Positions 1,910 to 31,983 of a stretch of 64,000 bases of DNA are shown here, piece by piece (position 1 is the first letter of the stretch; each line of letters begins with the position of its first letter). Location of the stretch: the sequence record MT446413.1, one strand, 5' to 3'. Origin of the DNA: Escherichia virus TH42. The translations under genes were made by a program, and so were the position numbers. Below the pieces are notes generated by a model. It was given only the letters and a program-made list of their open reading frames with translations, was not told the origin of the DNA and ran no database searches.

Positions 1910-2272
1910 TTACTCTGCTACCAAAAGGCTCAGAGATTTACGAATGTAGGCAATGCTACGGAAGTTTCGATAGTTCTCTTGGAAGCGCATCTTTTCAAAT
2001 TCTGCTTCCTGAAGTTCTACCTCTGCTGCATTGTATCCTGCCACAGCCAAACTCACCACATCCTGAGGTAAGGTATTACGACGACGAATAAGATATTTAT
2101 TCGCCTTTAGTTTGCTTTGTGCACGAGCCATTTTGGCCTTTGCCGCCTTAATGCCATGAGCAATCCAGAGCAGTTGCTGCTCCAAATCATTCTCGTCCAT
2201 GCCACCCAAATCATTTGCTACTTTATGCAGCGTAGACAGGTTCACATGGCCTTTGATGGGGCGTAGGTTCAT
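1910..2272 (-). CDS. hypothetical protein (120 aa)
   Basis: Track ORF; its ATG overlaps the stop of the upstream small ORF (ATGA-type coupling). Confidence 0.5.
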   Translation of the reverse strand: MNLRPIKGHVNLSTLHKVANDLGGMDENDLEQQLLWIAHGIKAAKAKMARAQSKLKANKYLIRRRNTLPQDVVSLAVAGYNAAEVELQEAEFEKMRFQENYRNFRSIAYIRKSLSLLVAE

Positions 2273-2436
2273 AACTTCTCCTGTTTATCACATTGATTGG
2301 TCAGCCAGTTGTAAGCCCCTCTGTTGTTCTTGCTTAACTCACAAGATGCAAAAGAATAGGTTCTGACAAACCCCACGGTGGCTAAGCAAATAAAGATTGC
2401 TGCCAATAAGAACTTAACTTTCAACTTATTATCCAT
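2269..2436 (-). CDS. small putative membrane protein (55 aa)
   Basis: Hand-translated ORF below track size cut-off: MDNKLKVKFLLAAIFICLATVGFVRTYSF...; hydrophobic N-terminal segment; stop overlaps next start. Confidence 0.4.
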   Translation of the reverse strand: MDNKLKVKFLLAAIFICLATVGFVRTYSFASCELSKNNRGAYNWLTNQCDKQEKL

Positions 2437-2639
2437 ACAACCTCTTCTTTGAACTTAAAAAAGGACTCTCCTAAGAGAGCCAAGCTTTAAGGCCAATTAA
2501 ATAGATATCACCCAATATCTGTGGATAACCTGCTCTTAAAATATTCTATCCGACGGATGTTCGAGGACTATTCCTCTCCCTAGCATCGGCCCCATACGGG
2601 TAAGATTAAATTAAGTTTAGGTTAGTTGAGCCAGAATAG

Positions 2640-2673
2640 CTCACATAGCCCTCTGATACTCACAAGGGCTATA
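2640..2673. repeat. conserved hairpin element, copy 1 (second copy at 8363-8396)
   Basis: CTCACATAGCCCTCTGATACTCACAAGGGCTATA; 8-bp inverted repeat ATAGCCCT/AGGGCTAT; lies directly 3' of the stop of gene 2678..2926. Confidence 0.6.
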
Positions 2674-2677
2674 GATG

Positions 2678-2926
2678 TTACTCTGTGGCTCCGTCAAAGC
2701 GAAGGATTGCTGTTGGAACAGGGATTACAACCATATCAAAATCTAAGCGGAAGAGGTGTCCTGTGCTCAGTTGAACTGCTGTTACAGGCTTAGCAATTCC
2801 TGAGACTTCTGCGGAAGGGATTCTGATAAAGAATTCTCCCGGATACTCAGGTGAATGAAACACTTCTCCCGCTGTCATATTTACCAACTTAATGTCGGGT
2901 ACGGGTTGTTTATTTTCAATTTGCAT
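2678..2926 (-). CDS. hypothetical protein, member of a small paralogous family (82 aa)
   Basis: Track ORF; N-terminal pattern (L..(L/M)..GEVF) shared with 4317..4571, 8404..8628 and 8629..8859. Confidence 0.5.
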   Translation of the reverse strand: MQIENKQPVPDIKLVNMTAGEVFHSPEYPGEFFIRIPSAEVSGIAKPVTAVQLSTGHLFRLDFDMVVIPVPTAILRFDGATE

Positions 2927-3159
2927 TACAGACCCTTCTTGGCACGATCTTTGGCAGTTTTGCCAGTGCGGATACGATGGGAAACATTAACCAGCTCACC
3001 ACCTTCGACGATAGTTACGCTTTTGTTTTTCGCAATATCAAACACAGACTTCTCTGTTCCGCCTAGACGAATCTGACGCGGTTCACTTTGGGTCTGAGTT
3101 GACTTGGACTGGAACTGGAACGGCTGACGGATGGCATCAATTGCGCTAACTTTAGACAT
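2926..3159 (-). CDS. hypothetical protein (77 aa)
   Basis: Track ORF on block strand; start/stop abut neighbours. Confidence 0.45.
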   Translation of the reverse strand: MSKVSAIDAIRQPFQFQSKSTQTQSEPRQIRLGGTEKSVFDIAKNKSVTIVEGGELVNVSHRIRTGKTAKDRAKKGL

Positions 3160-3187
3160 GTTTTTATTACCTTAAATTAAAGAGAGA

Positions 3188-3601
3188 TTAAACAACGAAT
3201 TGGAACGCTTCGTATCCAAACTTATAAGAGAAGTCATGCTTGAATTTCACTACACGACCACGGTCACGGAAAGATTTCAGACGAGTGATGAACCCAGCCA
3301 TCGGCTCAAGGTCAATAGGGCTACGAATCTTCATAGCTACAGAGTGCAGCTTGAAGCGCTTACCAGTGCTACAGGCCATCATCACATACTCCATACGAGT
3401 AGTCCAGATGTTGAGCACCATGCTTGTTTTCTCCGCTGACCAACCAGTCTTACGGGCGATTTCCTTATGGATGTTAAGCTCCAAAGGAAGAGGGAATTGC
3501 TTGTTGAATGAAGCCGGATAAAGTTTGACCAGAAGATCAATGTTTTCTTTATACGTGAGGTAGGCCAATTTTTTGCTTACGTTGGGGAATTTCCCAGCCA
3601 T
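3188..3601 (-). CDS. hypothetical protein (137 aa)
   Basis: Track ORF on block strand. Confidence 0.55.
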   Translation of the reverse strand: MAGKFPNVSKKLAYLTYKENIDLLVKLYPASFNKQFPLPLELNIHKEIARKTGWSAEKTSMVLNIWTTRMEYVMMACSTGKRFKLHSVAMKIRSPIDLEPMAGFITRLKSFRDRGRVVKFKHDFSYKFGYEAFQFVV

Positions 3602-3799
3602 TTTTGAAGCTCCAAAACAGCGCCGAAAAGAGAGGCGTCATAGTAGCTAAAGGGAGGAGAGAAGAGGGCTTATTTACTTGCCTTTTTCTGTCCGTTAATG
3701 TACCAGATAACTGAGCCATCAGGCTGTCGCTGACCAAAGCCTTTCAGGTTAACCATTTCTTCTTCAGAGTAGGCACGTTTTCTCACTGATTTTCTCCTG

Positions 3800-4057
3800 T
3801 CAATAGAAGGTGTGTGTAGAGTCGTCGTTCATAGATAACCAAACGAAGAAGACAATCACACAGAAAGCAATAATACCGAGAATTGCAAGGATTATAGTGT
3901 TAGCTAATGTGATATCTAACACGCTTTGCAGATACATAAAGAACTGTACGACACCACATATCATTAGCACGACACCAACAACAATGAGGAGCCAATATGT
4001 GCAGAGAAGGGCTGCATCCAATAGTGACACATATTTTGGATGATCTTTACGTTTCAC
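3800..4057 (-). CDS. putative membrane protein (85 aa)
   Basis: Track ORF with two long hydrophobic segments (LLCTYWLLIVVGVVLMICGVV; ILAILGIIAFCVIVFFVWL). Confidence 0.5.
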   Translation of the reverse strand: MKRKDHPKYVSLLDAALLCTYWLLIVVGVVLMICGVVQFFMYLQSVLDITLANTIILAILGIIAFCVIVFFVWLSMNDDSTHTFY

Positions 4058-4313
4058 TAACCTTCTCCACTAAATCCAGAGTTGCTGATTCAAATACAAC
4101 ACCAACTGGCATATTAGGTGCCATATTACGAACGTACCCACTCTGCATAGACACGGCTCGAGAGTATTCAGAACCGTTAGAGCTTTTGTTTACTTTCATG
4201 TAAAGGGTTTGTTCTTTATCTTCTTTAAGGGTAAAGAAAGAACCGGGAAGAAGTCCCTGAACGGTTACAGGGATATCTGCAACACGAGTCTTATTGATAG
4301 TAAGGACTGTCAT
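4047..4313 (-). CDS. hypothetical protein (88 aa)
   Basis: Track ORF on block strand, short overlap with neighbours. Confidence 0.5.
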   Translation of the reverse strand: MTVLTINKTRVADIPVTVQGLLPGSFFTLKEDKEQTLYMKVNKSSNGSEYSRAVSMQSGYVRNMAPNMPVGVVFESATLDLVEKVSET

Positions 4314-4316
4314 TAT

Positions 4317-4571
4317 TTATTCCTTAATAATTGCTTCAGCTTTAATAGGAATAACAGCAACATCTTTACGAGGCGCTGTCGCTCGGCCTGTGTTAAGACA
4401 GGCTACAAGTCTATGCTCGTCCGCACCCTTAATGCACAAGCGAGTGGAGAACTCTGTAGAGAGTAAGATGTATAAATCACCATCTTCACTGTTAGGGTAC
4501 ATGAAGCAATCCCCAAGTCGCAAAGCACTGAGGGGTATTGAATTTTTACCTGCTGGCATGTTAACTTTCAT
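4317..4571 (-). CDS. hypothetical protein, small paralogous family (84 aa)
   Basis: Track ORF; LSALRLGDCF motif resembles the 8404/8629 paralogs. Confidence 0.5.
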   Translation of the reverse strand: MKVNMPAGKNSIPLSALRLGDCFMYPNSEDGDLYILLSTEFSTRLCIKGADEHRLVACLNTGRATAPRKDVAVIPIKAEAIIKE

Positions 4572-4848
4572 TTAACCACCTTTAGTTATGGACCAATTTA
4601 TGAGAGAACTCTCGGAAGAATGCTTTCATAAATAGGGGGGAGGGGACGAATCCTCCCATATCCTATTAATTAATGTTGCATGTAAGACCTAACAATCCGA
4701 TGCTGTAGTGGATAGCGTAAAACGCTTACCGGCATTAAACCCAGCCCATGAGGGGCTTATGTGATTAAAATGCTCAACATTGAGCGGTTAGTTGATAGGA
4801 GATCTGAAGTCCTATCTCAAAGGACTCTCGTAAGAATCCTTCACGATA

Positions 4849-5115
4849 TTACTTAGTAATAAAGACTGTCACCTTATCCATTACCCAGCCTATCAACATA
4901 AGTAAAGGTAAGAAGAGGATAAAGATCAGCATAAAAGGCCAGAAGAATATCACCGTCCAAATAGAGTATTCATCAGGCTTACCACTCCATGAGGAATGGA
5001 AGAAGTTGTAGAGTGTATTGGTTTTAAAGCACCATTTAACTACAATGGCTGCCAACCACCAACCAATAACATAAATCAGGAGGACATACGCTGCTGTAAC
5101 CATTGACCGTTCCAT
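4849..5115 (-). CDS. putative membrane protein (88 aa)
   Basis: Track ORF with three hydrophobic segments. Confidence 0.5.
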   Translation of the reverse strand: MERSMVTAAYVLLIYVIGWWLAAIVVKWCFKTNTLYNFFHSSWSGKPDEYSIWTVIFFWPFMLIFILFLPLLMLIGWVMDKVTVFITK

Positions 5116-5330
5116 TGATAGTTGCGAGTTACCACGTTTCCGTGGATAAGGAAGTGCTGGCGGCGAAGGATATCTTTAACGTTGTAGTAGGCAGCGTTAC
5201 CGAGATGGCCTTCTTTGATAAGCCAGCGCAGATTACGAATATCAACCAACAACATGCTTACTTGTTGCTTGCATGAAGTCTGAGCCGCTGTTTCAATCAG
5301 AGATTTCGTATCAGAATAATGACCAGACAT
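5076..5330 (-). CDS. hypothetical protein (84 aa)
   Basis: Track ORF on block strand; 40-nt overlap with downstream gene. Confidence 0.4.
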   Translation of the reverse strand: MSGHYSDTKSLIETAAQTSCKQQVSMLLVDIRNLRWLIKEGHLGNAAYYNVKDILRRQHFLIHGNVVTRNYQWNGQWLQQRMSS

Positions 5331-5331
5331 A

Positions 5332-5631
5332 TCACCACTCCTTACCTGTTGTTGTCACAGAACCACCACACCACAATGCCGTATCAATCACAACCTTGTC
5401 TGGTGTAGACTTCTCTTCGTTGATAGACGGGTTGGCATTAGAACAGGTTGCCCCGTTGTAGCGCATATCAATCTCACCACTAGGAACCTTGTTCCCTGAA
5501 TGCCAGCGAGATACGCACACACCTTCTACCGATAATGCACACCATCCATCAGGACGATGCTGTACACAGCCTGTAAGAGCTACACAGGCGATAAAGATAC
5601 AGGTTAAGGTAATTACACCACCCCAGCTCAT
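5332..5631 (-). CDS. putative lipoprotein, Cys-rich (99 aa)
   Basis: N-terminal signal-like sequence with lipobox-like LTGC, followed by a Cys-rich domain. Confidence 0.45.
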
Positions 5632-5786
5632 GATCCCTCCTGAAGCGCCTTACGGCGGCTATCTCGCCAAGCCATCCATAGGTAGGTTTTAAGTTCTTCT
5701 CTTTCTTCTTCGCTGAACAAAGGAGAAGTAAAGATATCATCGAACCACTCATTAAACTCAGGGGTCATAAACCCTCCTATTTGATT

Positions 5787-5813
5787 TGGTGGACTATCTG
5801 GAATCGAACCAGA
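5787..5813 (-). tRNA. tRNA-like 3' fragment (T-arm, acceptor-like strand, CCA)
   Basis: Minus-sense TCTGG-TTCGATT-CCAGA then TAGTCC-A-CCA; no 5' acceptor partner found by hand within 120 nt. Confidence 0.3.
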
Positions 5814-5911
5814 AGCTCACTAAGAAAGCAATTCCCACTGTTATAAAAGCACTTGCCTCAACAGGGATACACTAACTCTGGTGCCGTACCCATACTAGCC
5901 CTTGTTTAAAA

Positions 5912-5940
5912 TTGGTCGGGACGGAAGGATTCGAACCCTC
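5912..5940 (-). tRNA. tRNA-like 3' fragment (T-arm, 7-nt acceptor strand, A, CCA)
   Basis: Minus-sense GAGGG-TTCGAAT-CCTTC then CGTCCCG-A-CCA; only about 25 nt separate it from the preceding element, so it cannot be a full tRNA. Confidence 0.3.
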
Positions 5941-5964
5941 TTACGTTGATTTAAAAGCTCTTAG

Positions 5965-6043
<79 letters not shown>

Positions 6044-6066
6044 ATTAAGAGCTTTCAATATTTTGT

Positions 6067-6318
6067 TTAACTGAAAATACGCAAGGCCACATCATGACCG
6101 ATATGACCGGGAACTTTGTGCTGCTCTATTTTCAAACAGAGTTTACAAACACGAGACACACGAGACTCTTTCGCTTCGACTGGAGTGTCTTTAGCGTGAG
6201 TGATGTGTAGGTTTTCAGTGATCACCCACTCGTGTTTACATCCAGAATCTTCGGGCTTTTTCTTACGAAAGAACATAATACCCCTTAGATCAGATCTGTT
6301 TTCTTGTGCAGACCACAC
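6067..6318 (-). CDS. small zinc-ribbon-like protein, paralog 1 (83 aa)
   Basis: Track ORF; CKHEW...CKLC pattern shared with the 6285..6449 and 6459..6644 ORFs. Confidence 0.45.
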   Translation of the reverse strand: MWSAQENRSDLRGIMFFRKKKPEDSGCKHEWVITENLHITHAKDTPVEAKESRVSRVCKLCLKIEQHKVPGHIGHDVALRIFS

Positions 6319-6449
6319 ACTTTACAGCGAGAGTAGATACGCAACCCTTGTCGCTCTCTGTCAGTAAGTTTATTTGTGATCGTCAGTTCATAAGTATGAA
6401 GATCTTCCCACTCATGGAAATGAAAGAAACGTTTGAACCATTTAATCAT
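6285..6449 (-). CDS. small zinc-ribbon-like protein, paralog 2 (54 aa)
   Basis: Hand-translated: MIKWFKRFFHFHEWEDLHTYELTITNKLTDRERQGLRIYSRCKVCGLHKKTDLI; below track cut-off. Confidence 0.4.
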   Translation of the reverse strand: MIKWFKRFFHFHEWEDLHTYELTITNKLTDRERQGLRIYSRCKVCGLHKKTDLI

Positions 6450-6458
6450 AATGATTCC

Positions 6459-6644
6459 TTAGATTACATCACGATGACTAACATCACCACACACCTTACA
6501 CTGAATAACGTAACGTGTGCCCTTGTCATTGTTCCCATCTGAATCTGTATAGACCAGAGGACGGGTGTTAATAATCTTCCAATCATGACAATGGAAGACA
6601 CGCTTTAGCCATTTAATCATACTAAGCACACGCCGGTAATTCAA
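6459..6644 (-). CDS. small zinc-ribbon-like protein, paralog 3 (61 aa)
   Basis: Track ORF; MIKWLKRVFHCHDW...CKVCG matches paralog 2. Confidence 0.45.
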   Translation of the reverse strand: MNYRRVLSMIKWLKRVFHCHDWKIINTRPLVYTDSDGNNDKGTRYVIQCKVCGDVSHRDVI

Positions 6645-6912
6645 TTAACTGAGGAGTACGACAAGGGCCATCCTCATACACACCTACTAGTGTTGGCATG
6701 TAAGGCCCAGCGCACTGGTATTCATCGAACAGTTCGTTATAGGTAGGCTTCCACTTCCAAGCCCACACATAGCCCATTCGATCAATGGCAATGTAACGAG
6801 TGTTCAGAGGAACCTGCATCATCACATCACCAACTGCTATTACTTTCGTAATAACTGCTGCTCGGAAGTTTGTCTTCATAGTCTCACCGCTTAACCATAA
6901 ATTGATACTCAC
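6622..6912 (-). CDS. hypothetical protein (96 aa)
   Basis: Track ORF on block strand. Confidence 0.5.
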   Translation of the reverse strand: MSINLWLSGETMKTNFRAAVITKVIAVGDVMMQVPLNTRYIAIDRMGYVWAWKWKPTYNELFDEYQCAGPYMPTLVGVYEDGPCRTPQLIELPACA

Positions 6913-7075
6913 GGATCGAGTCTACGTACTCCAACACCGCAGACTCTAACGTTTCCCACACCGAAGCCGCCCCCTCGCCTACGAGAACCTCCCATAACTC
7001 CGGTGATATCTGCGTTAGTTTTATCGTCGGTTTACCCGCAGCCTTACTCACCCCTAAAATAATTTCTTCCTGCAT
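6884..7075 (-). CDS. hypothetical protein (63 aa)
   Basis: Track ORF on block strand. Confidence 0.4.
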   Translation of the reverse strand: MQEEIILGVSKAAGKPTIKLTQISPELWEVLVGEGAASVWETLESAVLEYVDSIREYQFMVKR

Positions 7076-7101
7076 AGTCTCACCTCTATTATATTCACCA
7101 G

Positions 7102-7410
7102 TTAATCCGACAATGCCGCCATCATTTTATTCATTTTAGCCACACCTTTACGGATAAGTGGCATGAACTCATCGGCCAGTTCAGTGGATAAAAGTTTAAG
7201 ACCACCTGATTTAATTCCATTCACTGCCTTCTCAACCTCATCCGACAGCAATGTCATTGTTAACAATGGGGATTTTATTACCACAGTAAAGCCCGGTTCG
7301 TACCGTGAGTGACTGTAGGTGAACTCTAAGTGAGTGACACCGGGCATCTTAGACATTTGAGCACGGATATCTACATTAGGGTTACAGTGGGTTGAAGATG
7401 AAATTGTCAT
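7102..7410 (-). CDS. hypothetical protein (102 aa)
   Basis: Track ORF on block strand. Confidence 0.5.
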   Translation of the reverse strand: MTISSSTHCNPNVDIRAQMSKMPGVTHLEFTYSHSRYEPGFTVVIKSPLLTMTLLSDEVEKAVNGIKSGGLKLLSTELADEFMPLIRKGVAKMNKMMAALSD

Positions 7411-7658
7411 GGCTTTTTAATCTCAATCTGGACGTTGACAACAAATACAGTATGGTTTGCACTGTACACCGAAGTGCCTATGATTGGTTTGTCATCACTG
7501 AGGATTTCAACAGCGTGCTCAAGGTTAATCTTCAGATGAAGTCGACCTGATTCCATGAAGAAGTCACCAGCACGAATCTCACCAAACTTGGATGGCACAC
7601 CGATAGAGGGTATCAGTATGTCAGTACGACCTTTACGGTCAAATAAACGATTGAACAT
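7407..7658 (-). CDS. hypothetical protein (83 aa)
   Basis: Track ORF; 4-nt overlap with downstream gene. Confidence 0.5.
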   Translation of the reverse strand: MFNRLFDRKGRTDILIPSIGVPSKFGEIRAGDFFMESGRLHLKINLEHAVEILSDDKPIIGTSVYSANHTVFVVNVQIEIKKP

Positions 7659-7667
7659 ATCAACCCC

Positions 7668-7877
7668 TTATGTGATATCAACCTCAAACCAACAGGTAAG
7701 AGCTTTTTCATTGTTGCGCTTTGGTTCAAAGGATTTAGTAACTGATAACACCCGTCGCTGTTGTCCATCAAACCAGATAGTTTCATTTCTTTCAGGAAGT
7801 AGGTTGTGTGCAGCACAAACGATTTCACCTAGCACAACCTGTCTGCCATCTTGTTTACGAACTAAATGAATGTTCAT
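7668..7877 (-). CDS. hypothetical protein (69 aa)
   Basis: Track ORF on block strand. Confidence 0.45.
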   Translation of the reverse strand: MNIHLVRKQDGRQVVLGEIVCAAHNLLPERNETIWFDGQQRRVLSVTKSFEPKRNNEKALTCWFEVDIT

Positions 7878-7920
7878 ATCAACCTCTCTTATTAGTTTAA
7901 GTAAGAGTTATCCCTTAATT

Positions 7921-7952
7921 AAAACAACAAAGGCCACCCCGAAGGGCAGCCT
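7921..7952 (-). terminator. rho-independent terminator-like hairpin
   Basis: Minus-sense GGCUGCCC-UUCG-GGGUGGCC (two G-U pairs) followed by U-rich tract; near-identical hairpin on plus strand at 26184-26213. Confidence 0.45.
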
Positions 7953-7963
7953 CTTATTAATTA

Positions 7964-8101
7964 TCCACCGTAAAACCAATCACCTTGACGTTTACGGATG
8001 TTAGTTGTCAGACGAAGCATGGCAGACTCAATCTTCAGAGCACCATTTGCTACTGCATCCATACGTTCAGGACGGTTCATACGCTTGGTTGACTTCTTCA
8101 T
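7964..8101 (-). CDS. small basic hypothetical protein (46 aa)
   Basis: Hand-translated MKKSTKRMNRPERMDAVANGALKIESAMLRLTTNIRKRQGDWFYGG; followed by terminator hairpin. Confidence 0.3.
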
Positions 8102-8362
8102 AACGTTCTCTCTTTGTTAGTGGAGGCAGGATTGCCAGTTAATATAAAGGGAAGCCCTACACGTTAAGGCTTCCGCTTGTACAAACTGTCGAGAACTCTC
8201 TACCCCTAGATTGTTCTCTATCCCAAACCGATACATACCCCTACATATCGGAATGCCATTCGAAAATTAACAGGTTTTAGTCTATCACCGGATGTTTGAG
8301 ACAAGTCTCGCCCTAGCGGTGAGCCATATGGCACTGAGATTATGGTTAATTGAGGAACACCC

Positions 8363-8396
8363 TCACATAGCCCTCTGATAATCACAAGAGCTATAA
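8363..8396. repeat. conserved hairpin element, copy 2 (first copy at 2640-2673)
   Basis: CTCACATAGCCCTCTGATAATCACAAGAGCTATA, 31/34 identical to copy 1; directly 3' of stop of gene 8404..8628. Confidence 0.6.
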
Positions 8397-8403
8397 GTCG
8401 ATG

Positions 8404-8628
8404 TTACTTGTTGGTCAGTCTAACATTAGGTACACGATATACCTCTGTTGGTTTACGATCAGAGGAACGTTTACCAGTGTAGAGGTTAACAAAATAGGTT
8501 TTGTGTTCCCCATAACACGAAGTACACATGTAGTATTGGGTTTCAGCAGTATTAAACTGGAAGACTTCACCCGGCTCTAAATCACCGAGAGTTACAACCG
8601 CTGGTGTATTGTCGATATCAATCTTCAT
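8404..8628 (-). CDS. hypothetical protein, small paralogous family (74 aa)
   Basis: MKIDIDN...LGDLEPGEVFQF; tandem with paralog 8629..8859. Confidence 0.55.
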   Translation of the reverse strand: MKIDIDNTPAVVTLGDLEPGEVFQFNTAETQYYMCTSCYGEHKTYFVNLYTGKRSSDRKPTEVYRVPNVRLTNK

Positions 8629-8859
8629 TTAACCACCAATATTCGTTACTTGTACATTAGGTACAGAGATAACTTCATGATCTTCAGGTATCTGGAACAA
8701 AGTCCCCTGACCAAGACCAACGACACGGTGCATACCCTGCACATAGGTGTCTGTCTTTAGGTAGAGGTGTTCAGTGTTATTTTGTAATCGGAATACGTCA
8801 CCCGGACGTAACTCACTAAGCTTTTTAGTAACAACTTCAGAGGAGAGATTGATTTTCAT
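8629..8859 (-). CDS. hypothetical protein, small paralogous family (76 aa)
   Basis: MKINLSS...LSELRPGDVFRL; tandem duplicate of 8404..8628. Confidence 0.55.
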   Translation of the reverse strand: MKINLSSEVVTKKLSELRPGDVFRLQNNTEHLYLKTDTYVQGMHRVVGLGQGTLFQIPEDHEVISVPNVQVTNIGG

Positions 8860-9384: not shown

Positions 9385-9909
9385 TTAATTTCTATCAATA
9401 ATTTTCAGAGGTCTATATACAGTCATTACCTCTGGTTCCGAATCACTACCACTTTTTGCAGAGAAAATCATAAGTAGGTGATTTATAAGGGAATTTAGTT
9501 TGTCAATCTTGGCACCTATGAACCAGTCACGGGCACTATTATTGAACACTAAATCACCACAATACATTGGATTGGTATACCACTTTGGCACCCCTTCGCT
9601 CTTACTCTGAAAGTATGTACCGCTATACAAAGGCACATAGCTTTTCTTCAGTGCACGTCTTGCAAGCTGCTCGCTCTCCCTGATTGACTTCTTTGTCAGA
9701 GGATTATCATCACGAATTAGCTTTACATAACGTTTAAAAGGCTTCTCCTTCTTTAATAAGACGGGTATCCACTCGAACTGGTTTCGTTGTTTTATAACCT
9801 GCTCGGCAGTCAGTTTTCGTTGTGACATTCTGTTTATTACGGTATCCGCTACTAATGCTTTGCAAGCGGTTGGCTGATTCCCTGCCTCATAATAAATAGT
9901 CAATGTCAA
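9385..9909 (-). CDS. cell wall hydrolase, SleB/Hydrolase_2-like
   Basis: N-terminal IYYEAGNQPTACKALVADTVINRM...QFEW resembles the SleB-family signature (..YAEAGNE....K.AVA.VI.NR....QF); recalled consensus, not searched. Confidence 0.5.
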   Translation of the reverse strand: MTLTIYYEAGNQPTACKALVADTVINRMSQRKLTAEQVIKQRNQFEWIPVLLKKEKPFKRYVKLIRDDNPLTKKSIRESEQLARRALKKSYVPLYSGTYFQSKSEGVPKWYTNPMYCGDLVFNNSARDWFIGAKIDKLNSLINHLLMIFSAKSGSDSEPEVMTVYRPLKIIDRN

Positions 9910-9961: not shown

Positions 9962-9988
9962 TAAAAAAGCCCCATCCGAAGACGGGGC
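9962..9988 (-). terminator. terminator-like hairpin (1 of 3 in tandem)
   Basis: GCCCC...GGGGC stem preceded on plus strand by A6 (U-tract after hairpin in minus sense). Confidence 0.4.
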
Positions 9989-10041
9989 GACCTGAAAAGT
10001 GAACATGACCTCACTCGTTTAAGAACCCTCTCAAAGACTCT

Positions 10042-10066
10042 TAAAAAAGCGGCCTCATTAGAGGCC
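10042..10066 (-). terminator. terminator-like hairpin (2 of 3)
   Basis: GGCCTC-ATTA-GAGGCC with A6 on plus strand. Confidence 0.4.
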
Positions 10067-10146
10067 CGGTCAAATGACCATCCAATAGGGATTGAACCAT
10101 GCCAATGATTCACAAAGGGCTTTCCCTTTAGGCATCACTAGCTACG

Positions 10147-10168
10147 CAAAAAGCCGCACAAAGGCGGC
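10147..10168 (-). terminator. terminator-like hairpin (3 of 3)
   Basis: GCCGC-ACAAAG-GCGGC with A5 on plus strand. Confidence 0.35.
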
Positions 10169-11449: not shown

Positions 11450-11482
11450 AAAGAAAAGGCGCTACCCTTTCGAATAGCGCCT
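11450..11482 (-). terminator. rho-independent terminator
   Basis: Perfect 8-bp stem AGGCGCTA/TAGCGCCT with A-tract on plus strand; directly downstream of gene 11503..12405. Confidence 0.6.
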
Positions 11483-11502
11483 TATATGTTCTTTATTGTA
11501 GG

Positions 11503-23140: not shown

Positions 23141-24219
23141 TGGCAAATGAATTTTTAGACCCAAACGATTTTAAATCATTCCTCCAACTTGATGACTTGA
23201 AAGGATCTTTTAAAGAAGACCTAAGTCGATTAGAATCTGAACAAGAACCAGAAGTGGACATTGACAGTGAGTTTCCAGAAGATACTGGAGATAACTTTGA
23301 CTTTGATTCCGACCTTCTCGGTAAGGGTGATGAACTCACGTTCGAAGATGAAGAAGGATGGGATGATTCAGAAGAGGAAGGAGAAGACGATGAAGGTGAT
23401 TCAGACGACGACTCTGATGAAGTTGTTGAAGATGAAGAACCAAGTGATGTAGATCACGATGATTCTACTGACAGTGAATACGAAGAAGGTGACGCTTTCG
23501 ACGTAGATTATGAAACTGTTATCACCCTTCCTGATGGTCGTGAGATGACTATTGAAGAGTTATCAAATGGCTATGTTACTGGCTCCGATATGACTGAACG
23601 GGAAGCTGTTCTTCAGCGTCATGTTGAAGCTTTTGAAGAGCGTGTAGGTGGTTTAGCGGATGTATTAGAATTAGCGTCCTTAGAAGCAGACCGAGTAATT
23701 GAAGATTATAACGGTTTTGATTGGGACAAGCTAGCAGTTGAAGATCCACAAGCCTATGTTGAAAACAAACGCTTTTTAGAGAAGTACACTGCTCGTCGTC
23801 AGCAGCTTGAACAAGCGCAAGTTAAGATCAAGCAAGATGCAGCAGCAAAAGAACAGCAAGCCTTCCAAGCTAAATGTACCGAATGTGTTAATGTATTGAA
23901 ACGTGAAATTCCTAATTGGGATGACAGTGTTTATCAGAATCTGATGCAATATGCAATTGATCTCGGTGCTACAGAAGAAGAAGTCTTGAAAGAGAATCGT
24001 CCGTCTATTTTCCTAGCTTTGCACAAAGCATACCAATTCGATAAAGGTAAGCAACAAGTAATGGCTAAGATTAAACGTCCGGGTTCTCCACGTAAGGTTG
24101 TGAAGTCCGACTCTTCTAAGTCTCGTACTTCCAATACGCCAGACAACGCTAAGGTTGCCAAGGCATTTTCAGAGGGTCGAATTCGTCACGAAGATGCATT
24201 TAAGTATCTCGTAGATTAA
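23140..24219 (+). CDS. scaffolding protein (putative)
   Basis: 359 aa, long D/E-rich acidic tract plus helical C-terminus, directly upstream of capsid gene. Confidence 0.6.
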   Translation: MANEFLDPNDFKSFLQLDDLKGSFKEDLSRLESEQEPEVDIDSEFPEDTGDNFDFDSDLLGKGDELTFEDEEGWDDSEEEGEDDEGDSDDDSDEVVEDEEPSDVDHDDSTDSEYEEGDAFDVDYETVITLPDGREMTIEELSNGYVTGSDMTEREAVLQRHVEAFEERVGGLADVLELASLEADRVIEDYNGFDWDKLAVEDPQAYVENKRFLEKYTARRQQLEQAQVKIKQDAAAKEQQAFQAKCTECVNVLKREIPNWDDSVYQNLMQYAIDLGATEEEVLKENRPSIFLALHKAYQFDKGKQQVMAKIKRPGSPRKVVKSDSSKSRTSNTPDNAKVAKAFSEGRIRHEDAFKYLVD

Positions 24220-24259
24220 TCGACAAATTATTTTTAAATAGTATAGGAGCTAACATAAC

Positions 24260-25318
24260 ATGGCAAATCCAACTTTATTTGTATCTTACGACCAGAACGG
24301 TAAAAAACTTTCTTTTGCTAACTGGATTTCTGTCCTCTCTCCGCAAGATACTCCGTTTGTGTCTATGACTGGTAAAGAGTCTATCAACCAGACTATTTTC
24401 AGCTGGCAGACCGATGCACTGGCAAGTGTTGATGCTAACAACGCACACGTTGAAGGCTCTCGCGCTGATGACGGTGAAATGCAACCGACTGTTATCAAAT
24501 CTAACGTAACTCAGATCCTGCGTAAAGTAGTTCGTGTTTCTGATACTGCTAACACCACCGCTAACTACGGTCGTGGTCGTGAACTGATGTATCAGCTGGA
24601 GAAGAAAGGTAAAGAGATTAAACGTGACCTCGAGAAAATCTTGCTGTCCGGTCAGGCTCGTACCGACGTTCTGGCTGACCAGTATCTGACTAACTCAGCA
24701 GCTGATCCTGCTCTGGCTGGTCTGAATGACACTCATGCAGCTCGTAAGACTGGTGCTTTCCAGTTCCTGTGTGCCCATGGTGGTCTGTCTGGTAGCGTTG
24801 TTGATAAGACTAAGAACGGTCCTGCTGACCCGGATACCGGTGCAGTAACTGTTAAAGTTGCACAGAACGCATCTAACCCTACCACTAACGTAGGTTTTGA
24901 TGAAGCAGATATCTTTGATATGACCCTTCAGCTGTATACCGCAGGTTCTGAAGCTGATATCATCATGATTAACCCTGCTCACGCTAGCGTTTTCGCTAAG
25001 CTGCAGGAAAACTCTGTTGGTTCTCGTCAGCGTATCTTTGAGAACACTAAACAATTCATCTACGAAGTTAATAGCATCACCGACCCGCTGGGTCAGAGTT
25101 ATAAAATCATCGTTAACCGTTGGATGCCTACTGATGCAGTTTACTTCTTCCGTAGCTCTGATTGGACGCAGATGGTTCTTCGTGCACCGAAGCGTACTGA
25201 ACTGGCTAAAGACGGTTCTTACGAGAAGTGGATGATCGAGATGGAAGTTGGTCTGCGTCACCGCAACCCGTATGCTTCCGGTGTTCTGTTCACTGCTGCG
25301 GGAAAGGTAGCGGCGTAA
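24260..25318 (+). CDS. major capsid protein
   Basis: 352 aa, strong RBS, head-module position, frameshift signal at 3' end. Confidence 0.75.
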   Translation: MANPTLFVSYDQNGKKLSFANWISVLSPQDTPFVSMTGKESINQTIFSWQTDALASVDANNAHVEGSRADDGEMQPTVIKSNVTQILRKVVRVSDTANTTANYGRGRELMYQLEKKGKEIKRDLEKILLSGQARTDVLADQYLTNSAADPALAGLNDTHAARKTGAFQFLCAHGGLSGSVVDKTKNGPADPDTGAVTVKVAQNASNPTTNVGFDEADIFDMTLQLYTAGSEADIIMINPAHASVFAKLQENSVGSRQRIFENTKQFIYEVNSITDPLGQSYKIIVNRWMPTDAVYFFRSSDWTQMVLRAPKRTELAKDGSYEKWMIEMEVGLRHRNPYASGVLFTAAGKVAA

Positions 25319-25339
25319 CAGTTGACAGCGTAACTGTTA
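25300..25339 (+). promoter_or_regulatory. programmed -1 ribosomal frameshift signal
   Basis: Slippery heptamer G_GGA_AAG (X_XXY_YYZ in capsid frame) at 25300-25306, 10 nt before capsid stop; 7-bp hairpin AACAGTT/AACTGTT at 25318-25339. Confidence 0.55.
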
Positions 25340-26121
25340 GCCCTGCGTCAGTGGCAAGTCTACTGACCGGGGCTACCCAACAGTTTACAGCTCAAGCAGA
25401 ACTAAGCGACGGCTCCACATCAACTACTGGCTTTGATTGGTCAGTATCCGGTGGTGGGGCTATTTCTGCTTCTGGACTGTTCACTGCTCCGGGTTCGCCT
25501 CAAACCGCTGATATCACAGTGACTGCTACGCTTAAAGGTGTATCAAGTACTGCCGTTATTTCGGAAATTAAAGCTCCAATCCCTGACCCAGCTTCCATTG
25601 CTGTAACTGGGGGTGGTCTAACTGGTGATACTCTCACCATAACTGTTCCAGATGCTACCAGCCTGACTGCTTCTGTATCTCCTGCTGGTGCACCTCAAGG
25701 TGTTACTTGGGAAATTGCAGATCCGACTAAGGCTACGGTAACAACTGCTGGTCGTGTAACTGCTGTTGCAGCAGGTAGCACTACCCTTACAGTTAAATCT
25801 TCTACTAAACCTTCTGTCACTAAAGTGATTAATGTTGTTGTCAACCCCCAGCCTCCAACTATCGCGGCTAAAGCTGCTATTACTGGAAAATCTGGTGGAG
25901 ACAGTGTCGCTTTTACAGACATGTTTACTGTTCAACGCTCAGCTGCTAGTGACTATAATTTTGTAGTAACTCCATCTGCTGCTGGTACAGTGAATGCTGC
26001 TGGTCAGCTCACTTTAGCTGGTACGGCTAGCGGTAACGTAACTGTTAAAGCTACTCATAAAACTCAGACCTCAGTAACTGCAACTTCTACTATCACTGTT
26101 GTGGAATCAGGGTTACCCTGA
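25300..26121 (+). CDS. Ig-like domain C-terminal extension of capsid protein (-1 frameshift product)
   Basis: -1 frame is open from the slippery site to 26121; Thr/Ser/Val/Ala-rich beta-strand-like sequence typical of Ig-like decoration domains; the Met at 25228 lies inside the capsid gene and is unlikely to be an independent start. Confidence 0.55.
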   Translation, partial: GKGSGVTVDSVTVSPASVASLLTGATQQFTAQAELSDGSTSTTGFDWSVSGGGAISASGLFTAPGSPQTADITVTATLKGVSSTAVISEIKAPIPDPASIAVTGGGLTGDTLTITVPDATSLTASVSPAGAPQGVTWEIADPTKATVTTAGRVTAVAAGSTTLTVKSSTKPSVTKVINVVVNPQPPTIAAKAAITGKSGGDSVAFTDMFTVQRSAASDYNFVVTPSAAGTVNAAGQLTLAGTASGNVTVKATHKTQTSVTATSTITVVESGLP

Positions 26122-26183
26122 GAACTGACCTAGGTTCTACAGTGTTCAAAACTTACACCATTAAATCTGGTGCTTAAAACTAA

Positions 26184-26213
26184 GGCTGCCTTCGGGTGGC
26201 CTTTTCTCATTTT
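26184..26213 (+). terminator. rho-independent terminator after capsid/Ig gene
   Basis: GGCUGCC-UUCG-GGUGGCC followed by UUUUCUCAUUUU. Confidence 0.6.
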
Positions 26214-26234
26214 AAGACCCTTATAAGGAGATAT

Positions 26235-26242
26235 GTAATGTA
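26235..26242 (+). promoter_or_regulatory. GTAATGTA motif (candidate promoter element)
   Basis: 43 nt upstream of ATG of 26278..27024, between terminator and RBS. Confidence 0.25.
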
Positions 26243-26277
26243 TTCTCTTTGTCTATACATAACTAGGAGGACACACT

Positions 26278-27024
26278 ATGGCAATGCCTGAAGTTCAGTA
26301 TCCTATCAATACCTATGGCTGGCTTAAAAAGGCTGTGTCACTCTGGGCCGATAGGGATGATGGTGAATTTGTAGATCAAATTCCAAACTTTATTAACTTT
26401 GCAGAGAAAGAAATCTATCGTAACTTACGAATCCCTCCTCTGGAAAAAGAAGTATATTTAGATATCAAGGATGGTATTGCTTTTATCCCTCCTGACTTTT
26501 TAGAAGCACAGTGGATTATGAGAGCTTCAAATGGAATGATGTTCAGAGTAACCTCTCCTGAAGAACTTGACTGGTTGAAGAGAAATAACTCAGTCAACCC
26601 ATCCAATTGGAATCAAGGGGAAGTTGTTTTTGCTCGTTTAGGTAGTCGGTTTATGTTCTACCCTCTAATTGATGCAGATACTCCTGTTTATCCTGATGAT
26701 GGAGCACCTGAAATCCCTGCTGAGAATGCTGTAGTTTTAAGTTATTATGCAGACCCACCGGAGTTCCACTCTGATGAAGATACCAGTGCTATTCTAACTA
26801 TTGCTCCTGAGCTGCTTCTATATTTTACTCTGCGTCATGCTTCTTTATTCGTTCAAGATGATAATGGAGTTCAAAAGTGGTCAGCACTTGGTAAAGCAAT
26901 CCTTGACGAGATTGTGGAGCAGAGTAAGAAAGCAGAATACTCAGGTTCCCCTCTAGTAATCCCTAATACTATTAGCCGTCTTAATAGCTCACGAGAAGTG
27001 TACGGCATTCGTAGATACAGATAA
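26278..27024 (+). CDS. virion structural protein (248 aa)
   Basis: Position between capsid and tail-fibre genes; strong RBS. Confidence 0.5.
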   Translation: MAMPEVQYPINTYGWLKKAVSLWADRDDGEFVDQIPNFINFAEKEIYRNLRIPPLEKEVYLDIKDGIAFIPPDFLEAQWIMRASNGMMFRVTSPEELDWLKRNNSVNPSNWNQGEVVFARLGSRFMFYPLIDADTPVYPDDGAPEIPAENAVVLSYYADPPEFHSDEDTSAILTIAPELLLYFTLRHASLFVQDDNGVQKWSALGKAILDEIVEQSKKAEYSGSPLVIPNTISRLNSSREVYGIRRYR

Positions 27025-27033
27025 GGAGAACAT

Positions 27034-29667: not shown

Positions 29668-29677
29668 AACTAAGAAT

Positions 29678-29700
29678 GCCCTCTCTTCAGAGGGCTTTAT
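29678..29700 (+). terminator. rho-independent terminator
   Basis: GCCCTCT-CTTC-AGAGGGC followed by TTTAT. Confidence 0.6.
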
Positions 29701-29712
29701 GGAGGATTATAA

Positions 29713-31890
29713 ATGTCTAGAGAGTTAATGCCCAAGTCTGGGATAATGATGCCTCATGTTGTAGTATCACGAGATGCTGCTGTTGTCGGTGTATCTACTG
29801 TTGATGGTGCCGCTGGCGCTATCGACCTAACTAATAAATATTTACAGAAGACTGCAGCTGAAAACACCTATATGACAAAAACTGAAGGTGCTACTAAGGT
29901 TTATGTTTCAGACTCTATTGCCCCTATTATGGAAGGTGCTCTGTTTAAATCTGATCCTTTTGTAGCTAATGATGTACCATTCCGTGCTGCTGGGGCTAAT
30001 GGTGTAGAGTCTGTCGATATGATTAAAGTTACACCAGAGAACACTATCAAAATCGGTAGCTACGCTTCTTCTGTTCAGGGTGTAGAAGTTCACACTGCTG
30101 GTCGTCTTCAGGTTGTGGATTTGAATGACGGTGGTGTAGAAACTAAATATCCTGTCTACTCAAAACGGTATCGTCCTGAGATTGATGAACTTCCTTTTGC
30201 AGCGATCGGTTCATATGTCAAGGATTCTAAAGGACGCACTATTGGTGTAACTCGTACTGGTATCAACTCTGATATAACTCAGATGACTCAGAAAGTAACC
30301 TTCACACAACCAGTAACTGTTGCAGATGCTGTAGGAGATTATGATGCAGTTACCTACCGTCAACTTAAGAATCAGGGTGGTGGTTCTGGTGGTCCTACCA
30401 TGAGTGGTATCTCCAACTTTGGTATTGGTGATTTCCATCTTCGTGATAGTCGTGCTTTCATTCCTGCATTCGAAGTTGTATCCGATGGTCAGCTACTGAA
30501 TCGTGCTGATTACCCTGATCTTTGGGCTTATGCCCAGCTGTTAACTCCTATCACAGATGCTGCTTGGTTGGCTGATGCACAGCAACGAGGTAAATATTCA
30601 ACTGGTGATGGTTCTACTACCTTCCGTGTTCCTGATAGGAATGGTGTTCAGAGTGGCTCTCTGAAAGAACTCTTTGCTCGTGGTGATGGTGGTAATAGTA
30701 GTAATAATGGAATGGCTTATGATGCGGCACTTCCTAACATCGTAGGTTACACTGCCCACACTCTTTTAACTGCTGCGAGTAATCAAGGACAGGTTGCTAC
30801 CGATGGAGCTTTTACCTCTACAACCTCAACCTCAGGTGTTTGGCCTTTGTCTGGCGGCGGCGGTCTTTATACCAACATTCAGCTTAACGCTAACAACAGT
30901 GATGCTACTTATGGTCGCTACGGAATCACAGCGAATGCTATCCCTCGTAACTTCATTGGTGTTTGGACTATCCGTGCTCATGGTGGGTTTGTAGCAGCTA
31001 ATACTTCTTGGGCTGTTATTAACAGTGATACCTCTCGACCTTCAGCTGGTTCAAAAGCGACTGGTGGTTCTATCTTATCTCAGTATAAAATAGGCTCTGA
31101 TGTAGAAGCTGAGACTTACTTGAAAACTGATGCTTATATCAACGGAACTTACTACGGAGTTATTGGTGTTATTAACAAAACCAAAGGAGTGACTTCTGAG
31201 CTAACCTTTGGTGATGATGGCATCCTAAACTCTAACAAATACAGAGCAAGGCAAGTCTCGGGTTTGAGTTGGAATAATACAGGAGTTGAGAAGGGTACTT
31301 ATGCAATTGAAGATGTTAACATAGGAACTAACTATAACTTCAACAGTATAATCAGTGCTGCACAATCTTCTAATTCTGGTTACAGAACTTCTACTCATAT
31401 CGGTCAAATTCATAATGACGGTGGCTCTTTTGCTCAATCCTGCTGGCATGTATCAGGAGATGAAACTAACCAATATGGTGTTCGTCTTGCCATCCAACCT
31501 AACTATGAAGATATTTATTACTACTTCTGGGCACCAGATGTTTCTCGAACCTACACTCTTCAGAAGAATGCTGTCTCTGATGAACGTCTTAAGCGTGACA
31601 TTTACGATCTTGATGCGTCTAGGCCTATTGAAATTTTGAAAGGTTTGACTTTCCGTTCCTTTGTCTATAAGGATGATGAAAAGCAGAGAACTCGTCGTGG
31701 TGTTATTGCACAGGAGGCAGAGAAGGTAGAACCTCTGTATGTTAAGACGATTAACTTCTATGACCCTGATGGTAGCAAGAAAGATCAGAAACAGCTGGAT
31801 ACAACTCCTATGCTTCTTGATACAATGGCGGTAGTTCAAGACCTCCTAAAACGTGTTGAAGAGTTAGAAGCTAAACTGGCTGCTAAGTAA
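29713..31890 (+). CDS. tail fibre/tailspike with C-terminal intramolecular chaperone domain
   Basis: 725 aa; C-terminal SDERLKRDIYDL...GLTFRSF...RRGVIAQE resembles the self-cleaving chaperone domain of endosialidase-type fibres (recalled, not searched). Confidence 0.6.
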   Translation: MSRELMPKSGIMMPHVVVSRDAAVVGVSTVDGAAGAIDLTNKYLQKTAAENTYMTKTEGATKVYVSDSIAPIMEGALFKSDPFVANDVPFRAAGANGVESVDMIKVTPENTIKIGSYASSVQGVEVHTAGRLQVVDLNDGGVETKYPVYSKRYRPEIDELPFAAIGSYVKDSKGRTIGVTRTGINSDITQMTQKVTFTQPVTVADAVGDYDAVTYRQLKNQGGGSGGPTMSGISNFGIGDFHLRDSRAFIPAFEVVSDGQLLNRADYPDLWAYAQLLTPITDAAWLADAQQRGKYSTGDGSTTFRVPDRNGVQSGSLKELFARGDGGNSSNNGMAYDAALPNIVGYTAHTLLTAASNQGQVATDGAFTSTTSTSGVWPLSGGGGLYTNIQLNANNSDATYGRYGITANAIPRNFIGVWTIRAHGGFVAANTSWAVINSDTSRPSAGSKATGGSILSQYKIGSDVEAETYLKTDAYINGTYYGVIGVINKTKGVTSELTFGDDGILNSNKYRARQVSGLSWNNTGVEKGTYAIEDVNIGTNYNFNSIISAAQSSNSGYRTSTHIGQIHNDGGSFAQSCWHVSGDETNQYGVRLAIQPNYEDIYYYFWAPDVSRTYTLQKNAVSDERLKRDIYDLDASRPIEILKGLTFRSFVYKDDEKQRTRRGVIAQEAEKVEPLYVKTINFYDPDGSKKDQKQLDTTPMLLDTMAVVQDLLKRVEELEAKLAAK

Positions 31891-31896
31891 AGGACT

Positions 31897-31914
31897 GCCC
31901 CTTCGGGGGCTTTT
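31897..31914 (+). terminator. rho-independent terminator
   Basis: GCCCC-TTCG-GGGGC followed by TTTT. Confidence 0.7.
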
Positions 31915-31983
31915 AGAAGTTAAATTAGTGAATAGGTAATGAAACTAATATATCTAAAAGGATAAACACATAGGAGAAAGAAG

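Follow-up and report, generated by a model that had tools for sequence, protein, structure and literature searches.

A 34-nucleotide (nt) hairpin that occurs twice in the early region of Escherichia virus TH42 is the first helix (HP1) of a sense-strand RNA module of about 130 nt. The DNA analysed was a 64,000-nt stretch of sequence record MT446413.1 (hereafter referred to as the window), and the features described here lie mainly within its positions 2640-8859. Both copies of the module are encoded on the minus strand of the window, at the upstream ends of two intergenic regions that we call R1 and R2. Beyond HP1 the module has a three-way junction (P1, P2 and P3-P4), and the P3-P4 arm of this junction contains an invariant internal loop, CUAGGG-N/N-AACAUC. 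We regard it as a previously undescribed folded RNA without a Rfam counterpart and, on the evidence of its sequence, file it as a putative cis-acting structured RNA of the phage early operon.

The window comes from a phiEco32-like coliphage, and positions 2640-8859 fall inside the leftward early operon of this phage. A 6.6-kb stretch around the module matched 134 phage records at 80-95% identity, all of them phiEco32-like C3 podophages (Gordonclarkvirinae: Kuravirus, Suseptimavirus), with StefiGeyer_Bas88, HC-25922, IME267, SU7 and ECBP2 as the nearest relatives. A search for related loci with the neighbouring 405-amino acid (aa) protein returned one near-identical contig only. A GATase/COOH-NH2-ligase/amidoligase gene cluster is common to phiEco32-like, 7-11-like and Citrovirus phages. 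In phiEco32-like phages, genes ~69-125 belong to the early class; the host sigma70 RNA polymerase transcribes them leftward as long polycistrons from promoters at or near the right genome end (PMC4281155). An antitermination strategy is needed for this early transcription, yet it "remains to be defined" (PMC8948821).

The hairpin is part of a larger conserved RNA fold

The first-pass annotation of this DNA had described a 34-nt element, placed at 2640-2673 and 8363-8396, that contained an 8-bp inverted repeat and stood directly after the stop codons of two small open reading frames (ORFs). Copy 1 lies where it was placed, and copy 2 lies one base off, at 8362-8395. The high identity of the copies stands, at 32 of 34 positions rather than 31, and a pair as similar appeared in none of 100 dinucleotide-preserving shuffles. 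They begin close to the stop but not at it, 4 nt past the TAA in copy 1 and 8 nt past it in copy 2. The inverted repeat is present, as ATAGCCCT/AGGGCTAT in copy 1 and with one G-U pair in copy 2, and forms an 8-9-bp hairpin. HP1 comprises this element plus a lower stem and has its base enclosing the upstream stop codon; immediately past the stop, an internal loop separates the 5-6 bp of its lower stem from the 8-9 bp of its upper stem.

The sequences around the element had been taken as simply diverged. Over the next ~100 nt the identity of the two copies is ~37%, yet the invariant blocks CTAGGGnGAG...CTCnAACATCCG and covarying helices persist. Aligning R1 with R2 revealed more shared blocks, and compensatory changes became visible once phiEco32, SU7 and Salmonella phage 7-11 were added. 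From an alignment of 25 distinct copies from 16 loci, unguided RNAalifold recovered four helices, HP1, P2, P3 and P4. Each of them varies by paired substitution: the HP1 upper stem occurs as CCCU/AGGG, CUUC/GAGG and CUAC/GUGG, the short P2 as CCC-guau-GGG, GCC-auau-GGC and GGC-auau-GCC, the 6-bp P3 as CCGAUG/CGUCGG, UCGGUG/CGCCGA and UCACCG/CGGUGA, and the inner P4 as GAGGA/UCCUC, GAGC/GCUC and GAGAC/GUCUC. The loop of HP1 also varies (12 nt in R1 of this phage, a UUCG tetraloop in phiEco32 and CCGA-type elsewhere). Over the whole module 99.8% of 557 cells were paired, and compensatory double changes were found in 9 of the 23 pairs. None of 500 shuffles reached the observed values, and shifting the 3′ partners by 1-3 columns gave 35-47% paired cells. 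The suggestion that the hairpin is under selection is borne out.

The fold was assigned to the gene-sense strand, because 46 G-U cells in the module would be A-C mismatches on the opposite strand. The P3-P4 arm contains 13-14 invariant nucleotides. The N/N position flanking P4 was A-G in 13 copies, C-A in nine and A-A in three, never Watson-Crick, with repeated switches within each clade. Drawing on general knowledge of RNA structure, we read this covariation as a non-canonical pair stacked on P4, a signature of a three-dimensional RNA structure.

A covariance model built from the alignment found exactly two copies in the 64-kb window, scoring 138.7 bits (R1) and 123.5 bits (R2). Neither region matched any Rfam 15 family at gathering thresholds or at permissive E-values; the sub-threshold noise (TarB, 22 bits vs 80; STnc100, 21 bits vs 47) fell at the terminator end in both cases, and at gathering thresholds the whole window gave a single match, to a tRNA at 5965-6043. 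A literature search, with the primary phiEco32 papers of Pavlova 2012 and Savalia 2008 outside its scope, found no paper describing the element.

Anatomy of the two copies

The positions of R1, R2, their parts and the neighbouring small genes are collected in Table 1. The full length of R1 was compared in 13 sequences: 98.7% of cells were paired, and there were 11 compensatory pairs, including three in P1b and the terminator stem. Its junction was reproduced by the minimum-free-energy fold of the single sequence. P1 of R1 is long, UAACCU...UCUUAA/UUAAGA...AGGUUA, and closes the junction in which P2 and P3-P4 are the other two arms. On the 3′ side of the junction come a hairpin specific to the clade, a canonical terminator and the next ribosome-binding site (RBS), the core lying 45-70 nt upstream of the terminator, at which the SU7 and 7-11 records carry a terminator annotation.

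R2 has its first ~130 nt in common with R1. RNAalifold predicted 83 pairs in R2, 15 of them compensatory, and the covariance-model score covers the first 131 nt. Duplex folding supported P1 less strongly in R2 than in R1. In the HP1 lower stem of R2, U-G changes to C-G between clades. The terminal stem has an insertion of ~55 nt in phiEco32-type phages, and R2 ends with a 4-bp hairpin ahead of the RBS of a 46-aa ORF. An ORF at 8218-8385, in frame with 8404-8628, was considered as a sign of coding or of stop-codon read-through and was rejected: relatives differ by two-nucleotide indels, not by multiples of three, and R2 is therefore non-coding.

Table 1. Positions of the RNA regions, their structural parts and the associated small ORFs in the window
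Feature	Position	Strand	Description
R1	2437-2681 (~245 nt)	-	Non-coding structured region, from upstream stop codon to start codon of next gene
R1 HP1	2636-2681	-	Upper stem 2665-2672/2645-2652; lower stem 2677-2681 (GUAAC, holds UAA stop)/2636-2640
R1 three-way junction core	2526-2624	-	From RNAalifold, pair counts and duplex folding of P1
R1 P1, P2, P3	P1 2602-2624 with 2526-2548; P2 2591-2600; P3 2584-2589/2550-2555	-	
R1 internal loop and P4	CUAGGG-A 2577-2583/G-AACAUC 2556-2562; P4 2563-2576	-	
DnaA-box sequence in R1	2520-2528	-	Perfect TTATCCACA; overlaps P1 3′ strand
R1 terminator	2457-2481	-	Canonical intrinsic terminator; 7-bp covarying stem, then C + U6; 10 nt before next RBS
R2	8102-8407 (~305 nt)	-	Non-coding structured region, from stop of ORF 8404-8628 to ATG of 46-aa ORF
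R2 HP1	8356-8405	-	Lower stem AACAUC 8400-8405 (overlaps UAA stop)/GGUGUU 8356-8361
R2 core	8265-8351	-	P1 8345-8351/8265-8271; P2 8323-8332; P3 8317-8322/8285-8290
R2 internal loop and P4	CUAGGG-C 8310-8316/A-AACAUC 8291-8297; P4 8298-8309	-	
R2-specific 3′ domain	8141-8251	-	Hairpins with UAGGGGUA loops at 8228-8251 and 8191-8218
R2 terminal stem	8141-8174	-	Variable length, followed by CUUUAUAUU; terminator-like, weak U-tract
46-aa basic ORF	7961-8101	-	phi32_112 homologue, phrog_13305; directly after R2
Terminator behind 46-aa ORF	7929-7954	-	Strong, intrinsic
Paralog, 82 aa	2678-2926	-	Directly upstream of R1; phrog_6570, cross-hits 7832, 7431, 12612, 16423
Paralog, 88 aa	4047-4313	-	Absent from first-pass list; phrog_12612, cross-hits 7431, 6570
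Paralog, 84 aa	4317-4571	-	phrog_7832, cross-hit 7431
Possible weak paralog, 83 aa	7407-7658	-	GDxF pattern aligns
Paralog, 74 aa	8404-8628	-	Directly upstream of R2; phrog_9955, four cross-hits
Paralog, 76 aa	8629-8859	-	Family hub; protein modelled

The 46-aa ORF has a very basic N-terminus (MKKSTKRMNRPER...). Some 100 phages conserve it, and 7-11 has a weak homologue located away from the RNA element. In phage Paul, GenBank lists a 31-aa coding sequence (CDS) inside R1 (locus L131, 7513-7608), which is probably spurious given the RNA structure and the conservation pattern.

Conservation and spread of the module

R1 matched 104 phage records, with 80-100% identity in 98 related phages, and R2 matched 98 phages at 60-99% identity. 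Between clades R1 is 85-88% identical, where the adjacent 405-aa protein is ~41% identical. The first-pass annotation had proposed searching related phages for changes in copy number; this search found the element in related genomes, in one to three copies. The covariance model counted two copies in each genome of the phiEco32 type and three in EcoN5; in the 7-11-type phages, of which 18-24 kb each were examined, it found one. In EcoN5 (locus L127, 7464-7598 and 8982-9116), a tandem duplication of ~1.5 kb comprising R1 and its flanking small genes gives rise to the three module copies.

Wider searches used sequence patterns. A loose pattern, GCTAGGG-N(8-18)-AACATCCG, gave in IMG/VR mostly chance hits among the matches listed, and a tighter pattern was then used. 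When IMG/VR, 185,000 species genomes and JGI metagenomes were scanned for exact patterns, the only true copies were in phiEco32-like and 7-11-like phages and in one divergent contig, L136; about 50 of the 75 metagenome matches were chance or coding sequence without P3 or HP2, and the scans of the 185,000 species genomes found no host copy. The divergent contig keeps the invariant loop and differs in HP1 (GUUAAGCG/CGCUUAAC) and in P3 (AAUAGCG/CGCUAUU), and its proteins point to kinship with Citrobacter phage CVT22 (Zobellviridae, Citrovirus). Diverged copies were found with the covariance model in the Citrovirus phage Klyazma (37.7 bits), where HP1 keeps UAUAGC...GCUAUGUG, and in CVT22 (22.2 bits); each has a single module copy ~2.3 kb from the right genome end. 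The module is conserved over three podophage groups, Gordonclarkvirinae, Grimontviridae and the Citrovirus genus of Zobellviridae. Small proteins encoded at 1978-4396 of the divergent contig have a KGD(I/V)V motif in common; there are several, all ending in -(D/E)EENE, and they form another expanded small-protein family in an early region.

A possible role in terminator read-through

As the best explanation, we tentatively favour a cis-acting RNA that would govern termination or read-through in the long early transcript. The module, as part of the nascent early transcript made by the host RNA polymerase, would act in cis on the transcript or the polymerase and would set the share of transcription that continues beyond the terminator, or terminator-like hairpin, located 60-190 nt further on. 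It would thereby control processive antitermination or attenuation, resembling put if it works alone and nut if its invariant loop is bound by a factor of host or phage.

This proposal is consistent with the arrangement of the two regions. Each copy of the module is followed within 60-190 nt by a hairpin and a U-rich tract, which in R1 is a canonical, covarying terminator. The genes upstream and downstream of the element vary by lineage, so that it is not a gene-specific leader or riboswitch; a classical metabolite riboswitch was also rejected on finding no consistent downstream gene class and no conserved switching helix. Consensus-only scans detected neither a sigma70-like nor a gp36-type TAATGTATA promoter inside or behind R1 or R2. 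Because no promoter-like site stands behind the R1 terminator, the genes past it (in relatives including the amidoligase cluster) must rely on read-through.

Several observations weigh against the read-through proposal. Scans based on a consensus could miss real promoters. Inspection of the folds did not find a conserved anti-terminator pairing between the module and the terminators. The terminal hairpin of R2, with its weak, interrupted U-tract and with a long inserted stem in phiEco32, makes a poor terminator, and R2 cannot be the sole device, since four terminator-like hairpins (one at 11456-11483 and three at 9969-10168) stand upstream of it. When the covariance model was run with filters off on positions 24000-33000 of HK022, its immunity region with put, the best match was 5.3 bits (E = 2.4), and neither R1 nor R2 contained a convincing boxA or boxB. 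Moreover, the layout of HP1, core and terminator suits a processed stand-alone non-coding RNA (ncRNA) equally well. The narrower proposal, that the module represents a new class of processive-antitermination RNA, either factor-free like put or acting through a small phage or host protein on the CUAGGG/AACAUC loop, is possible, but we consider it doubtful.

Comparison with known phage RNA elements

We compared the module with its nearest functional analogues, the put, nut, T7 RNase III and PeSL elements; of the testable features of membership, it shares with them its position in the operon alone. The put RNAs of HK022 occur in two copies per genome, each a multi-helix RNA in an early operon transcribed by the host RNA polymerase, with a short ORF before it and intrinsic terminators behind it; they act in cis on the polymerase, at the zinc-binding domain of β′, to suppress termination. 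The elements here resemble putL and putR in being two multi-helix RNAs (~70-130 nt) per genome, in the early operon, with only moderate sequence similarity between the copies, and in being part of a nascent early transcript in which terminators that need to be read through come later. They differ in that there is no match in sequence or structure, the put RNA being two adjacent stem-loops and the present module a hairpin with a three-way junction, and in that the phiEco32-like copies are not promoter-proximal.

The order of ORF, RNA signal, terminator and next genes is also that of lambda cro-nutR-tR1, and R2 with its small, very basic ORF and strong terminator recalls pL-nutL-N-tL1. The boxA consensus (C/U)GCUCUU(U)A, however, has no equivalent, the best candidates being CCUCAUUAAC and CUCAACUAAC. 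The linkers CUCAACUAACC in R1 and CCUCAAUUAACC or CCUCAUUAAC in R2 have neither the G nor the U-run of boxA, and the R1 linker is the 5′ strand of P1. The purine-rich pentaloop that is conserved in the short boxB hairpin and bound by the arginine-rich N protein is likewise absent, as the HP1 loops are UUCG, CCGA-type or 12 nt long. In contrast to lambda N, the basic 46-aa ORF is not beside the element in 7-11 or Citrovirus phages. It was rejected as a general N-like partner: the 7-11 homologue lies 12 kb from the element with no R2-like RNA beside it, and the Citrovirus elements precede unrelated ORFs.

Intercistronic RNase III sites of the T7 early mRNA, about two helical turns of irregular duplex, are similar in being irregular hairpins with an internal loop after a stop codon in a polycistron, and such a hairpin could stay on the 3′ end of the upstream message and stabilise it. 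The resemblance is confined to HP1; the three-way junction and the invariant loop have no counterpart. PeSL (promoter-early stem-loop) elements of T4 share with the hairpin a conserved short sequence beside variable small early ORFs, at homology breakpoints. The present element differs from them in having no associated promoter, two copies only, and a large structured RNA under structural selection. Three resemblances noted by eye were discarded as short, not conserved across copies and without support from any tool: HP2 to a type I-F CRISPR repeat, P4 plus loop to rrn boxA, and the antisense of HP1 to a T7-type promoter.

Alternative readings of the module

The module might instead be a stable ncRNA acting in trans, a reading that we consider possible though on balance unlikely. 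R1, and perhaps R2, would be cut from the polycistron at or after HP1 and end at the terminator, giving an RNA of ~200 nt. Its invariant loop and G-rich UAGGG loops would bind or sequester a host or phage protein, such as a defence or RNA-metabolism factor, and a phage ProQ/FinO-like protein may be its chaperone. The layout is gene-like, with a 5′ hairpin, a conserved core and a terminator hairpin followed by U6; the element is independent of its flanking genes; and UAGGG(G) repeats occur in the core, in two R2 hairpin loops and in Klyazma. Against this, the sequence upstream is variable coding sequence without a conserved promoter, and R2 has no clean terminator and continues into the RBS of the next ORF.

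Some support for a trans-acting RNA comes from a ProQ/FinO-like ORF ~500 nt upstream of R1 in this clade, which is found in 7-11-like phages as well; the gene is, however, missing from the phiEco32/SU10 clade, which retains both elements. This minus-strand ORF (3188-3601, 137 aa) scored 27.0 bits against the Pfam ProQ/FinO family PF04352, exactly at the cut-off of 27 (E = 4.5e-6). This clade, the 7-11-like Salmonella phages and phages of Erwinia and Aeromonas have homologues of it, a part of which are annotated as ProQ, RNA chaperone or sRNA-binding protein, and a PDB sequence search with it gave no match. Its product may be a phage RNA chaperone.

Alternatively, the element could punctuate the mRNA. 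HP1 (~15 bp) would be a site for RNase III or RNase E, cleavage there would leave a protective 3′ hairpin on the upstream message, and the junction domain would protect the long untranslated spacer from Rho and nucleases. In nearly all copies HP1 stands just past the stop codon and takes it in; the hairpin is irregular, made of two parts and followed by an AU-rich single strand, its loop varying and its stem kept; and 245-305 nt of untranslated RNA lie within the operon. This reading nevertheless leaves unexplained the 13-14 invariant nucleotides and the non-Watson-Crick covariation of the P3-P4 arm, and also why only two of many intercistronic gaps bear the element. We judge it unlikely.

Action at the level of DNA, either as a replication origin or DnaA site with extruded sense-strand hairpins or as a recombination linker homogenised by gene conversion, seems very improbable. 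The sequence TTATCCACA, the only perfect DnaA-box match in 64 kb, lies inside R1, GGTTATCCACA is kept in all R1 copies including those of Salmonella 7-11-type phages, and homology breakpoints are located in HP1. The box is missing, however, from R2 and from the Citrovirus copies, and part of it is accounted for by P1 pairing (AGGUUA). The G-U pairs and the non-Watson-Crick covariation indicate RNA, and the compensatory changes speak against simple homogenisation.

Neighbouring genes and recombination within HP1

The first-pass annotation had treated the hairpin as a 3′ cassette belonging to a family of small paralogous genes. The gene abutting HP1 is a member of this family in the window, in 7-11 and in pSal-SNUABM-01. 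Genes outside the family abut it elsewhere: phi32_91 in phiEco32, the membrane protein gp093 in SU10, a phi32_93 homologue in Bas93, where the element is retained although the upstream paralogs have been deleted, and an unrelated 49-aa ORF in contig L136. Within the window, four of the six paralogs (4047, 4317, 7407 and 8629) have no element.

These relatives already largely refute a gene-linked cassette, in which the hairpin would travel and duplicate with the paralog genes as their terminator or processing signal. What favours it is that both window copies follow paralogs, as does the single copy in 7-11 and pSal-SNUABM-01, and that a mosaic junction lies within HP1. It is contradicted by the four unrelated ORFs adjoining the element in other phages, by the paralogs without an element together with the covariance model's count of just two copies in the 64 kb, and by HP1 itself, which belongs to a larger conserved fold and is no terminator: it has no U-tract, GUGAG... 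comes next, and the terminator scan did not report it. We consider such a cassette the least probable of the readings.

The sequences point instead to recombination. In many relatives, homology to R1 of the window starts in the middle of HP1 (query positions 25-28). HP1 of the window R1 is 94% identical to HP1 of R2 and 68% identical to HP1 of phiEco32 R1, and the rest of R1 is 86% identical to phiEco32 R1. Because HP1 of R1 is R2-like and the remainder phiEco32-R1-like, we place a recombination junction inside HP1. The comparison indicates that, in this clade, R1 received an R2-type half-hairpin and a different upstream gene by an exchange whose crossover fell in the conserved 3′ arm of HP1, and exchange within HP1 would explain how a near-identical hairpin comes to stand amid diverged flanks. 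HP1 thus appears to serve, as a by-product, as a junction for cassette exchange, the exchanged upstream genes often, not always, being β-barrel paralogs. The pairing of paralog and hairpin would be an outcome of recombination at the hairpin.

A family of small β-barrel early proteins

The four minus-strand ORFs on which the first-pass annotation had based its family (2678-2926, 4317-4571, 8404-8628 and 8629-8859) are present at those positions. Their shared pattern exceeds similarity of composition, and they form a true paralog family that is larger than had been noted, with 5-6 members in the window and about 9-10 in phiEco32. The profiles phrog_6570, 7832, 7431, 12612, 16423 and 9955 connect 2678-2926, 4047-4313, 4317-4571, 8404-8628 and 8629-8859 by cross-hits. 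In pairwise comparison, 8404 vs 8629 gave E = 2.5e-7; the remaining pairs gave just 0.01-0.1, all of them via 8629. The ORF at 7407-7658 had no PHROG cross-hit, and a partial leave-out hidden Markov model (HMM) gave it E = 0.18. The window count is thus five solid members and one weak one.

A family HMM detected proteins outside its build (E from 1e-15 to 4e-4 overall): phi32_95, 96, 97, 98, 104, 109, 113, 114 and 115, and also 7-11 AEK82027 and pSal-SNUABM-01 gp118/119. Because members are thus found in phiEco32, 7-11 and pSal-SNUABM-01, we regard the family as large and lineage-wide. Pfam gave no match for the paralog proteins, and a search of 5.8 billion proteins gave 44 clusters of the family, all from related phages and all unnamed. 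The model of the hub protein (8629-8859) predicts a small five- or six-stranded barrel with structural similarity to known SH3-like/KOW proteins. From the known SH3-like, KOW and Tudor domains the paralogs differ in having no Pfam match and sequence homologues confined to related phages. They are, to judge from the model, an ordinary though large family of small SH3/KOW-like β-barrel early proteins.

Other features of the early region

All of the following features are on the minus strand. Three tandem terminator-like hairpins lie within 200 nt of a single intergenic region at 9969-10168, upstream of a 174-aa ORF (9385-9909) that resembles cell-wall hydrolases, and a further strong terminator-like hairpin lies at 11456-11483. 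The 277-nt intergenic region at 4572-4848 is hairpin-rich; its hairpin at 4813-4836 resembles the R1 terminator, and it has a GGGAGG...CCCUCCC stem at 4638-4657. The covariance model found no match in this region.

Three consecutive ORFs of 83, 54 and 61 aa at 6067-6644 share the pattern M-I-K-W-x-K-R-x-F-H-x-H-x-W ... C-K-V-C-G. They contain a 43-nt direct repeat (6408-6450 and 6579-6621, 81% identical) and constitute a second small paralog family, which looks zinc-ribbon-like. The adjoining region, 5770-6066, contains the Rfam tRNA match mentioned above (36.4 bits), which ARAGORN did not report; relatives annotate a tRNA-Arg here. Its flanks resemble tRNA 3′ halves (GGTTCGAATCC...CCA and GGTTCGATTCC...CCACCA), which suggests decayed tRNA genes.

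Implications for phiEco32-like phages

R1 and R2 are two intergenic regions into which annotation pipelines at times place small CDSs that are spurious. Phages of the phiEco32 and 7-11 types are models of sigma-factor takeover, and their long early transcripts cross several intrinsic terminators. For this step the module offers a concrete, mutable antitermination candidate that is conserved more than the neighbouring proteins. If that role is true, a new antitermination RNA would let the host RNA polymerase cross the intrinsic terminators that punctuate early operons of ~20-40 kb in phages of the phiEco32, 7-11 and Citrovirus types. Should it turn out to be a processed ncRNA or a decoy instead, the module would nevertheless represent a new family of phage RNA.

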